NCBI GenBank assembly: GCA_977017645.1
Contig: OZ360238.1
Location: 59,830,001 to 59,894,000 of the forward strand
Length of the DNA stretch: 64,000 nt
Reading direction: 5' to 3'
Origin: Torpedo marmorata
Taxonomy: Eukaryota
In this document: piece after piece, positions 28,008-30,323 of the stretch
Layout of the letters: every line of letters starts with the position of its first letter
Numbering within the stretch: the stretch's first letter is position 1
The notes under the pieces: generated by a model
The model's database searches: none
Told to the model about the DNA's origin: nothing
Seen by the model: the letters and a program-made list of their open reading frames with translations, nothing else
Program-made: the position numbers and the translations under genes

Positions 28008-28686
28008 TATAATTTCTACACGAGGATGTTAAAAACATCAGAATTGAGATCTAACTCAATGTTGGCAGAATTGTAGTTCACAGTACTAAAGTGGTTAAGG
28101 GCTTTATAGATTTTATCCAAATACCCTTTCATTGTTTTAGTCATTACTTGTTTTTATATTATACACATCTACATTAGATTCTTGGATTCTTTGGACTTAA
28201 TTGAACATAAAGTATGCTCTCATGCATAAAGGTTTGCGTTTTTCTTCACAAGTGTTGTGCAATTTGAATGCCCCTTTGAAGCACCCTCAATGCACAATTT
28301 TTCATATTAAAATCCATGACTTCGATCTAGATTATTTCTGACCCTGTTTCAGTTCTCCTGAAATCTCTTGCATCCCTTCAGTTTATTAATTTGGTGTCAT
28401 GCTGTGAGTAGTTTTGATACCCAGTTCATATCTATACACACACAAATATATATATATATACACATAGATGACCACTTTGAGCAATGTTTTAACATTTTTC
28501 AATCCTTTACCATTAAAAACATATCAATTTTTCTACCAAAATGGATAACTCCAAATTTTTACACAGTACAATCCAGCTGCAACATTATCACCCTTTCACT
28601 AAGCATGTCCATATCCCCCAAAGCCTTTCTATATACTCCTCATTCCACCCAGCTTTGCATCATATGCAAATGTATATAGGTTATAC

Positions 28687-29659
28687 AGGTCTAGGACATT
28701 TTGGCGGCCAGTTTGGCGCCGGACATTTTGGCAGCCAGTTTGGCGCTGGATATTTTGGCCCACCACCCCACTCACCGTCTGCTGGCCGACTCTGTCCCGC
28801 CGCACTGCCTGAACCCCCCGCATTGCAGAAACTCCCTCCCCCCAAGAAACCACTCCCCTGGCAAACAAGGGCTTTTTGTAGCTTATAGCAATATTTTTAA
28901 ATTATTAAAAACAGTCGGGGAACAATCAAAAACAAAGGCTTTTGGTAAATTATAACGATATATTTATTATATTTATTGTAAGTTAATTACATATAATGGA
29001 ATATATAATTAATTGAATTTAAAATTATTAAAAATTTAAAAACACTCGTTAAAAACAATCCAGTTGTCGTAAACAATATTAAATTATTAAAAATTGTTTA
29101 TTAAAAAAATTAATCTATCAGTTCTTTCTCTCCATATGAAGACACTATCTTCAAGATTATTTGTTCCACACATCTGGCGCAACTCACTGCAACCACTGTG
29201 ACTATAACCACTGTCGCCGTTCTCTCTCTGCAGTGTCGTTCACGCAGCTTTTGACAAGAAATTGCGATAAAACGATCGAAAGTAAAACCCACCGTTAACC
29301 AAACAGAGCATTCTATAGTCACAACCCTCAGTACAAGTGAAAGGGTGCAGATAGGCGTTATTAACAAGAAACTTGCATACACATACATATAATTAATATC
29401 CTGCAATATATTATTAATCACAACTACCGTTAGATCTGCCACTGCCACCAGGGGAGCAGTTTCCTGGGGGGAGGGAGTTTCTGAAACGCTAGGGGTTCAG
29501 GCAGTAGCAGGCGGTGAGTGGAGCGGGGAGCTGGGCCAGTGCCAAACTGTGGGCGCCAAAATGTCCGAAGGGCTACAAAAGTCTCTTTTTTTTTTTGCCA
29601 AAATGTCTAGCGCCAAAATATCCGGCGCCTAACTGCGGGCGCCAAAATGTCTGATTCCG
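28687..29659. mobile_element. Mutator-like (MULE-type) non-autonomous element carrying a captured gene fragment
   Basis: About 170-210 bp imperfect TIRs built on GACATTTTGGCG repeats; 9-bp flanking duplication aggttatac/agattatac; interrupts a CR1 remnant that is continuous across it. Confidence 0.75.
29165..29451 (-). pseudogene. Captured fragment (about TM2-TM4) of a GPR139-like class A GPCR
   Basis: LVAVADL...TPICTLSLVLRVVTIECSVWLTVGFTFDRFIAISCQKLRERHCRERTATVVI: ADL of TM2, Cys at top of TM3, DRF motif; resembles the GPR139-like family expanded in sharks and rays. No stops or frameshifts. Confidence 0.88.
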
Positions 29660-30274
29660 AGATTATACGTGGTTTCCTTATCCAAATAATTGATGCACAC
29701 TGTGAACAGTTGAGGCCCAGCATCGATCCCTGTGGCATCTCACTAATTCAACGCAAAAAAAATGACTGTTTAATCTTACTTTGCTTTTAATTTCCTCTCT
29801 AAGGTAAATCACTCTTATTGCATTTGAAAATTGTTCATCCATTGTCAATAGGGACATTCAAAAGAGTCTGAGATAGGCACATAAATGTAAGAGAAATAGA
29901 GGTTATGGGTAGGGAAAAATTAGACTGTTGTGGAGTAGGTTTCTATAGGTCAGCACAACATCATGGGCTGAGGGCCTGTACTGTGTGTAATGTTCTATCT
30001 ATCTTCTAAGCTTCTCAATCAATATGCCACCCACATCTAAATTTTAAAAATAATTAATTTTATAAATGTTTATTCCATAGGATCTGGCAAAAACAGCTTA
30101 TTTTTGCTATCTCTAATTATGCTTGGTGGTGAGCAGCCTTTTGGAGATAGATATAAAACTAGTGATTTCAGCATTACCCCTGAGAGAAACTAGTTAAGTC
30201 CAAACAATAAAACACTTTTTATCAACCATTTTTTACAAATGTTTCCATCAAACCCACTTCTTGCCCATATACAG

Positions 30275-30323
30275 TACATGTCCATTTAAACATTAAGGCA
30301 CATAATGTTTAAATGGACATGTA
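30275..30323. repeat. Perfect 21-bp inverted repeat with 7-nt loop
   Basis: TACATGTCCATTTAAACATTA-aggcaca-TAATGTTTAAATGGACATGTA. Confidence 0.92.

Follow-up and report, generated by a model that had tools for sequence, protein, structure and literature searches.

Mutator-like elements (MULEs) that capture pieces of host genes are a major force in plant genomes, and such ‘Pack-MULEs’ were reported to be absent from the 100 animal genomes covered by the results of Tan et al. from 2021 (PMC8277862). The same results list 370 animal ‘Pack-TIRs’, 87% of which belong to the hAT or Tc/Mariner groups. Only four multicopy families are described among them, with three copies in the example presented, and the row for the elephant shark, the only shark included, shows zero Pack-TIRs and zero MULEs (PMC8277862). 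Where Dupeyron et al. (2019) discuss chordates, the evidence for MULEs in these animals is considered limited and the vertebrate entries are doubted (PMC6446971). High-copy spread of host exon pieces in vertebrates is described for the Helitrons of bats and Xenopus, but these elements move by a rolling-circle process and lack both long terminal inverted repeats (TIRs) and a 9-bp target site duplication (TSD), as outlined in the accounts given of them (PMC4224331, PMC12001565).

The Pack-MULE family described here from the genome of Torpedo marmorata is real, is present in high copy number and carries at least two coding cargos. It offers a Pfam-confirmed MULE, donors and joints for these cargos, many dated copies and an empty insertion site. 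The locus from which our analysis started lies in a 64,000-nucleotide stretch of this 6.2-Gb genome (contig OZ360238.1, positions 59,830,001 to 59,894,000 of the forward strand), hereafter called the window. We are confident that a piece of a host G-protein coupled receptor (GPCR) gene replaced the interior of a FLYWCH-type MULE, and that the resulting element has since reached at least 91 sites. In the literature that we searched, which lay outside subscription journals, Repbase and Dfam, we found neither a vertebrate Pack-MULE nor any mention of this family. The cargo of the element Ricksha is a retroviral piece and not a host exon, in which it differs from the Torpedo family. Ricksha, from placental mammals, resembles this family as a vertebrate element with foreign DNA that is classed as MuDR in one listing (PMC5753468), and its status as a MULE is questioned in another (PMC6446971).

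Plant Pack-MULEs, such as those of rice, resemble the Torpedo family in having MULE ends, a 9-bp TSD and approximately 300 bp of distant host DNA in place of the transposase, as well as several copies and several cargos within one family, to judge from the features given for them (PMC8277862, PMC6446971). The Torpedo family differs in its vertebrate host, in a FLYWCH transposase that is closest to arthropod elements, and in its scale: one cargo is present in approximately 90-100 copies, and another in at least 185 elements. With the animal Pack-TIRs, as these are characterized in PMC8277862, it has in common a host fragment enclosed by transposon ends, joints at which a few bases are shared, and multiple copies far from the parent gene; however, its carrier is a MULE, and its copy numbers are 30 to 60 times that of their three-copy example. 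In Ssk-FB4 of Drosophila melanogaster, a TIR element has likewise taken up protein-coding DNA and is present in multiple copies, but according to its description there (PMC8277862) it holds an almost whole gene that is translated and under selection, whereas the Torpedo cargo is a fragment that evolves neutrally.

The unit in the window spans positions 28687-29659 (973 bp), and both this extent and the long imperfect TIRs and flanking duplication proposed in the initial annotation proved right. The 9-bp duplication reads AGGTTATAC on the left (28678-28686, plus strand) and AGATTATAC on the right (29660-29668, plus strand), where eight of the nine bases are the same as in AGGTTATAC. The left TIR (28687-28861, plus strand, 175 bp) corresponds to the end that lies downstream of the transposase on transposase-bearing copies, and is therefore called the 3' TIR, whereas the right, 5' TIR (29453-29659, minus strand, 207 bp) lies upstream of the transposase in longer copies. 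These two ends are the same across copies. They are imperfect repeats, with inner arms (28804-28861 and 29448-29505) that are 88% complementary over 58 nt and outer arms built of a short repeated motif, which also makes up the outer part of the 3' TIR.

Between the TIRs, the minus strand carries the captured GPCR fragment (29169-29452), followed by a shortened transposase tail with its stop codon (29110-29168), which in this long form of the element is in frame with the cargo, and then by the 3' untranslated and subterminal DNA of the MULE (28862-29109). The last segment matches DNA downstream of the transposase in six other loci (L139, L140, L146, L147, L150 and L154) at 83-92%. Because the transposase of these elements ends with the same C-terminal residues as the open frame of the window, what had been described as AT-rich filler is instead the 3' end of the MULE itself, and the frame's 19 terminal codons encode the transposase tail and not GPCR sequence. 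These 19 codons are all that is left of the transposase, and the unit is non-autonomous. Compared with L146, the cargo has replaced approximately 1.6 kb of the MULE and is oriented in the transposase sense.

The flanks of the unit (28560-28677 and 29669-29746, both minus strand) are the two parts of an old repeat remnant, which are contiguous in the empty site described below and share one reading frame across the insertion site (…YLDKETTYN, then YNLYTFAYDAKLGG). The right part matches a dispersed repeat at 78-86%. The proposed insertion into a CR1 element thus holds with respect to one interrupted repeat; by its motifs, the remnant reads like a putative CR1 reverse transcriptase, and a BLAST search against the extracted family loci for both flanks adjacent at another locus gave zero hits. 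The other 25 long frames listed in the window were judged by eye to be repeat remnants or chance frames. Elsewhere in the window, at 30275-30323, there is an inverted repeat with perfectly matching 21-nt arms, 7 nt apart.

The cargo spans TM2-TM4 of a class A receptor, including the DRF motif, in close agreement with the approximately 95 codons first noticed: it comprises 94 codons in the window copy and 96 in the donor gene. The 112-aa open frame on the minus strand matches 7tm_1 over profile positions 26-124 (E 6e-7), with a score of 29.6 bits that falls just under the curated cut-off of 30.5 bits. A 6-nt deletion has left the window copy without an in-frame ATG, which most other copies retain. 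The intact relatives of the cargo in rays and sharks are labelled ‘probable G-protein coupled receptor 139’ by NCBI, the best of them at 73-78% in an electric ray, and solved structures match about equally weakly for GPR15 (8e-8), the TRH receptor (3e-7) and GPR139 (5e-7). We therefore treat GPR139 as the label of a cartilaginous-fish receptor family and not as a demonstrated orthologue.

The element family belongs to the Mutator superfamily, as the initial annotation had assumed, and this is supported by its 9-bp TSD and by partner transposases with the same ends. A genome-wide search with PF10551 gave 25 hits, 15 of which carry the unit's ends or its 3' DNA within 1.5 kb. The remaining ten (L131-L137, L141, L143 and L153) lack the ends of this family and may represent other MULE families or domesticated genes; the MULE-domain hit of L131 lies in a 428-aa open frame. 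One transposase-bearing copy, L172, is bounded by both unit ends and an 8/9 duplication. Frames of the longer copies match the FLYWCH (E 7e-11) and MULE (E 4e-11) domains, both above cut-off, with PF10551 above cut-off in L172 and PF04500 in L173. Their nearest named proteins come from mantis shrimp, firefly and prawn (49-52%), unnamed ones reach 53%, and the similarity to these arthropod-type relatives extends over 228 aa (49-53%). The combination of a FLYWCH domain with TIRs built of repeats is tied to Phantom MULEs. Phantom-type elements, whose grouping is discussed in PMC6446971, share with the Torpedo family a single FLYWCH and MULE frame, TIRs of short repeats and a 9-bp TSD; by its domain make-up and nearest named relatives, the Torpedo family is a candidate member of this group. 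Set against the doubts about chordate MULEs in the sections of the same source that raise them (PMC6446971), this family has a Pfam-confirmed transposase in a vertebrate.

A search for an autonomous MULE with matching TIRs had also been suggested. Transposase-bearing copies with the same ends exist, but all of those translated are broken and none has an intact frame, and for this reason we infer the mobilising enzyme. A snake protein (P0016) with MULE, FLYWCH and PF01352 domains is 43% alike to the family transposase and is a possible domesticated relative in another vertebrate. Five loci (L072, L074, L080, L082 and L086) carry the 3' subterminal DNA at both ends, as fold-back forms.

At least 91 dispersed copies share both cargo joints with the window unit. 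This number combines 86 distinct cargo loci retained by a strict filter (83%) with five real copies (L006, L215, L218, L220 and L225) that the filter removed for large indels and that are absent from the frame, omega and TSD counts. When the genome was searched with the whole unit, the best 40 of 2120 first-look candidates were scored, and all overlap the cargo. A 21-base pattern across the joint between TIR and cargo has 85 matches with at most one mismatch (control, zero), three of which fall in the satellite contig C1394. The joint is visible, within the DNA extracted, in 51 of the 64 loci found before the pattern search, which puts the total of cargo copies near 100.

Among the 64 copies for which both ends are present, a 9-bp TSD matching at eight or more positions flanks 46, with an exact match in 30, and a slack of one base at the ends raises the count to 54. 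Lengths of 4-7 and 10-12 bp occur in at most two of the 64 copies, exact 8-mer duplications occur in six and are mostly end offsets, and shuffled end pairings yield a TSD in at most 2 of 46. The insertion sites are distinct in all 64 copies. Their median length is 897 bp. The long 3' form seen in the window is matched by only 10 of 86 copies, and 65 of the 86 have a shared deletion there.

A donor for the cargo was found at 14.87 Mb on contig C2 (L049), which differs from the contig of the window. The GPCR frame continues there beyond the cargo on both sides, and neither MULE ends nor MULE DNA was detected at this locus, so that the anticipated parental receptor gene does lie outside any MULE end. 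The donor is broken by a stop codon and split by an L1-like insertion; a near-identical duplicate at 13.57 Mb lacks this insertion and is also broken, and the next paralogues are only 79% alike. The donor duplicates (L231, L156 and L174) lie 1.3 Mb apart. The captured piece corresponds to 288 bases (96 codons) within one coding exon, and therefore says nothing on whether DNA or mRNA was its source.

Both joints of the cargo show overlaps of 2-3 bases, and their shortness is a point against the origin proposed below. At joint B (29169-29171, minus strand), GTG is common to the donor and the transposase gene (4/5 when neighbouring bases are included), and the cargo is joined in frame to the transposase tail. 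At joint A (29448-29452, minus strand), CC is shared exactly, and CC(C/T)GG at four of five positions, between the inner TIR end and the donor. The cctgg overlap originally noted at the TIR edge is thus real as a set of short shared bases, but its exact extent is two bases: cargo-free 5' ends mostly read CC-C-GG (five of six strict matches) and the donor reads CC-T-GG, unless the parent copy already had the C-to-T change. Of 67 full-cargo copies, 58 have an in-frame ATG as their fourth codon, immediately interior to the 5' TIR. With the TIR fused directly to the GPCR piece, the transposase has lost its 5' untranslated region.

A tree that included ten paralogues grouped 66 copies with the two donors in a single star-like clade (support 100/99); because of an alignment artefact, L014 was omitted from this tree and from the omega estimates. 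The best tree places the donors inside the star and not beside it, a topology that holds the copies together is not rejected (p-AU 0.56), and the tree alone does not establish the copies as a single clade. The donors and the copy majority differ at 14 columns. For five amino-acid changes among these, the copies agree with the outgroup, the stop codon is that of the donors, and the D of DRF is retained in the copies. As it is the donors that have departed from the outgroup, their decay likely came after the capture. The ancestral frame is better preserved in the pack copies than in either donor.

An insertion site without the unit is preserved in runs X2 and X4, which come from one sample. The contig skips 982 bases, equal to the unit plus one TSD (973 + 9), and in run X2, where it is 1949 nt long, position 28680 is joined to 29663, with 26 differences over approximately 356 flanking nucleotides. 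In the Torpedo genome itself, paralogues of the right flank are partial: among the best 40 of 97 candidates, which were scored, matches of 78-86% cover no more than 79 of its 172 bases. The contig is therefore read as the orthologous site of a related species. Runs X2 and X4 also have contigs that cross joint A and the short-form joint B, so capture likely took place before the species split. The window site was likely occupied after this split, or else the insertion was then still segregating. The mean difference between a copy and the column majority is 3.2% (2.4% without CpG), which is in line with capture before the split and a later insertion in the window.

These observations can be assembled into a route by which the family likely arose. 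A break or a stalled fork in a MULE would have been repaired by switching template to host GPCR DNA at two or three shared bases, while the donor frame was still intact. The template would then have returned into the transposase tail, leaving both MULE ends intact, presumably in one capture event. Transposase from longer family members likely moved the short element in trans, in a burst. A variant with the 3'-end deletion then out-amplified the first form (65 versus 10 of 86), and the dispersed GPCR copies are now decaying. The same family repeated such a capture with ELL exon 1 and the beginning of intron 1. No founding copy was recovered among the genome copies examined; the repair may have been gap filling after excision or fork stalling with template switching, two modes of Pack formation that comparison of related genomes makes testable in a vertebrate.

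A different history, in which the GPCR piece entered a MULE already resident at this site, either as a retrocopy or through gap filling without later movement, has precedent, since most animal Pack-TIRs are single-copy and made without transposition, according to the account of their formation (PMC8277862). We regard it as extremely unlikely here. The same two joints recur at distinct sites in at least 91 copies, the empty site lacks the whole unit, neither joint shows a poly(A) tract or an inner duplication, and the donor lies on another contig. That history is refuted for the window locus; the founding copy may have formed in this way. Thus, as the initial annotation proposed, the cargo was already inside the element when it jumped to this position. 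An assembly artefact would be suggested by the repeat-rich setting and by nothing else, and its probability is close to negligible: copies at distinct sites differ from the column majority to the extent given above, and independent runs have contigs across joint A and the short-form joint B. Neither a lack of 9-bp duplications, nor copies belonging to another superfamily, nor a TSD or poly(A) tract belonging to the GPCR piece itself, nor a misassembly was encountered. The same capture has been considered as a source of the many GPR139-like genes in these fish. The family is large in Torpedo, where approximately 68 of 151 listed matches are long open frames with 56-73% identity (hand count), and one of its members was mobilised; we nevertheless find it very unlikely that MULE capture drove the expansion of intact genes. 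None of the 20 paralogue loci examined has a TIR or 3' DNA match within approximately 2 kb, 19 of the 20 have a frame of at least 250 aa, many are clustered, and the family is large across rays and sharks. Because the copies are 96-codon pieces, less than a third of a receptor, and the intact members examined lack MULE ends, capture does not explain this expansion. The suggestion that capture disperses GPCR fragments and inflates counts therefore stands for translated searches for this GPCR family, in which the copies would yield approximately 90-100 extra fragments, but not for the intact genes.

With a transposed Pack-MULE as the preferred origin, we also considered whether its cargo could be expressed or kept by selection, either as a three-helix peptide or as an RNA that regulates the GPCR family. 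Several features would favour this: the ATG is retained in most full-cargo copies, 26 of 67 frames are unbroken, the cargo reads in frame into the transposase tail, and MULE TIRs are stated to hold promoters in the treatment of PMC6446971. None of the sequencing runs listed for the element is recorded as RNA. In run X1, which bears another organism label, one contig of 380 nt spans the two joints of the short form; its RNA status is a guess, it may represent DNA or read-through, and it was not counted as expression. Stop codons are also fewer than in a neutral simulation (10 versus 21 expected, P 0.004; 9 versus 18, P 0.01, in the junction-selected subset; 5 versus 10, P 0.065, when each change is counted once), a deficit for which shared descent and uneven site rates may be responsible. 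Against these points, a frameshift or stop codon interrupts 41 of the 67 full-cargo copies (a few by deletions at the cargo end; 19 partial copies were excluded), indels show no preference for multiples of three (19 of 62), the window copy has lost its ATG, and the TIR-GPCR joint has eliminated the transposase leader. The dN/dS comparison that had been suggested gives a neutral pattern, with omega near 1 in all five counts: 1.11, 1.06, 0.94 and 0.92 relative to context-matched shuffles, and 1.12 for copies chosen by the joint alone, 37 of 59 of which are broken. A protein search with the 112-aa frame, a weak test confined to proteins of 61-196 aa, returned no match. We therefore consider a retained function unlikely on sequence grounds; the cargo evolves neutrally, and its copies are likely decaying without function.

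The family has captured more than one host gene, a scope that the initial annotation underestimated. A pattern for the 5' end has 681 matches genome-wide (control, 1). Of 70 sampled 5' ends, 35 are paired with a 3' end and bounded by a 9-bp duplication, and six of these 35 elements are purely MULE-derived. Within 1.4 kb of the 70 ends we found ELL exon 1 in 21 cases, a telomere-like repeat with a 30-bp minisatellite in 17, a short GC-rich minisatellite in six, a 190-bp repeat in three and the GPCR piece in three. The sample skipped seven listed places, four of them GPCR packs, so this last figure understates the GPCR share, which is 7 of the first 77. Copies with and without cargo had been proposed for comparison, and GPCR packs, cargo-free ends and other cargos are all present in the family.

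The ELL piece matches PF10390 (E 1e-11) and consists of exon 1 from the fifth codon together with the start of intron 1. Among 139 matches (138 of 407 candidates were scored), 15 belong to three multi-exon ELL genes and 124 are dispersed exon-1 matches. The donor (L327, at 37.73 Mb on contig C68) holds the whole of exon 1 in a multi-exon gene and is 96.5% identical over 115 bases. The splice donor is kept in 35 of 39 ELL-bearing loci, and because the cargo retains the intron start, it was captured from DNA and not from mRNA. An ELL joint pattern has 370 hits (control, 0), which at no more than two per element correspond to at least 185 elements. Translated searches for ELL or for these GPCRs in such genomes can thus be expected to return approximately a hundred false fragments each.

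Thirteen of the 39 ELL-bearing loci have their own MULE ends and a 9-bp TSD matching at 8-9 positions (L251, L257, L267, L270, L286, L298, L329, L332, L334, L336, L339, L342 and L344), whereas 22 lie in an outer element with a common upstream flank and four are unclassed. Short TIRs delimit the outer element, and its 8-bp duplication is exact in five and matches at 7/8 in two of the eight copies with both ends in view; by this signature it is of hAT type. Such elements, 1.55-1.8 kb long, carry the ELL pack with a 170-nt inverted duplication whose arms are 92% alike (L256, L272, L330, L338, L340, L341, L345 and others), which could give rise to hairpin RNA. The ELL pack was re-amplified inside a hAT-type element, with one transposon amplifying the cargo of another. 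A tentative and unlikely extension is that Pack-MULE products act on host genes, if in some copies the TIR serves as promoter for a GPCR fragment that starts at its own ATG, and if the inverted-duplication copies of ELL, amplified within the hAT element to more than a hundred sites, yield hairpin RNA that tunes intact ELL.

Other inserts were also observed. In three loci (L274, L282 and L295), the MULE ends enclose 190 bp of a common repeat, and a derivative form with a further 719-bp insert is found in six places (L249, L346-L352). Three of these places share one TSD and flanks, one has its own, and L350 and L351/L352 are without MULE ends; comparison of the six gave no gene identity or clear donor for the insert. 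MULE ends also surround (TTAGGG)-like repeats with the 30-bp minisatellite (L245, L247, L269, L285, L289, L301, L308 and others), which are likely captured subtelomeric DNA.

Captured exons feed further repeats not only as hAT passengers but also as a large satellite. On contig C1394, one GPCR copy seeded a 66-bp satellite: truncated packs there pass directly from the 5' TIR into units of 22 codons derived from cargo bases 89-163. An exact search for the joint between satellite units gave 1117 matches on one strand, of which the first 100 all lie on C1394 from 239.9 kb onwards, and the array extends over roughly 90 kb (approximately 239.9-330 kb; L230, L234-L239 and L243). Satellites of 24 and 57 bp that lie beside it on the same contig were also considered as cargo derivatives and show no match to the cargo. 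Through repetition, the 66-bp satellite contains open frames of up to approximately 1500 codons.
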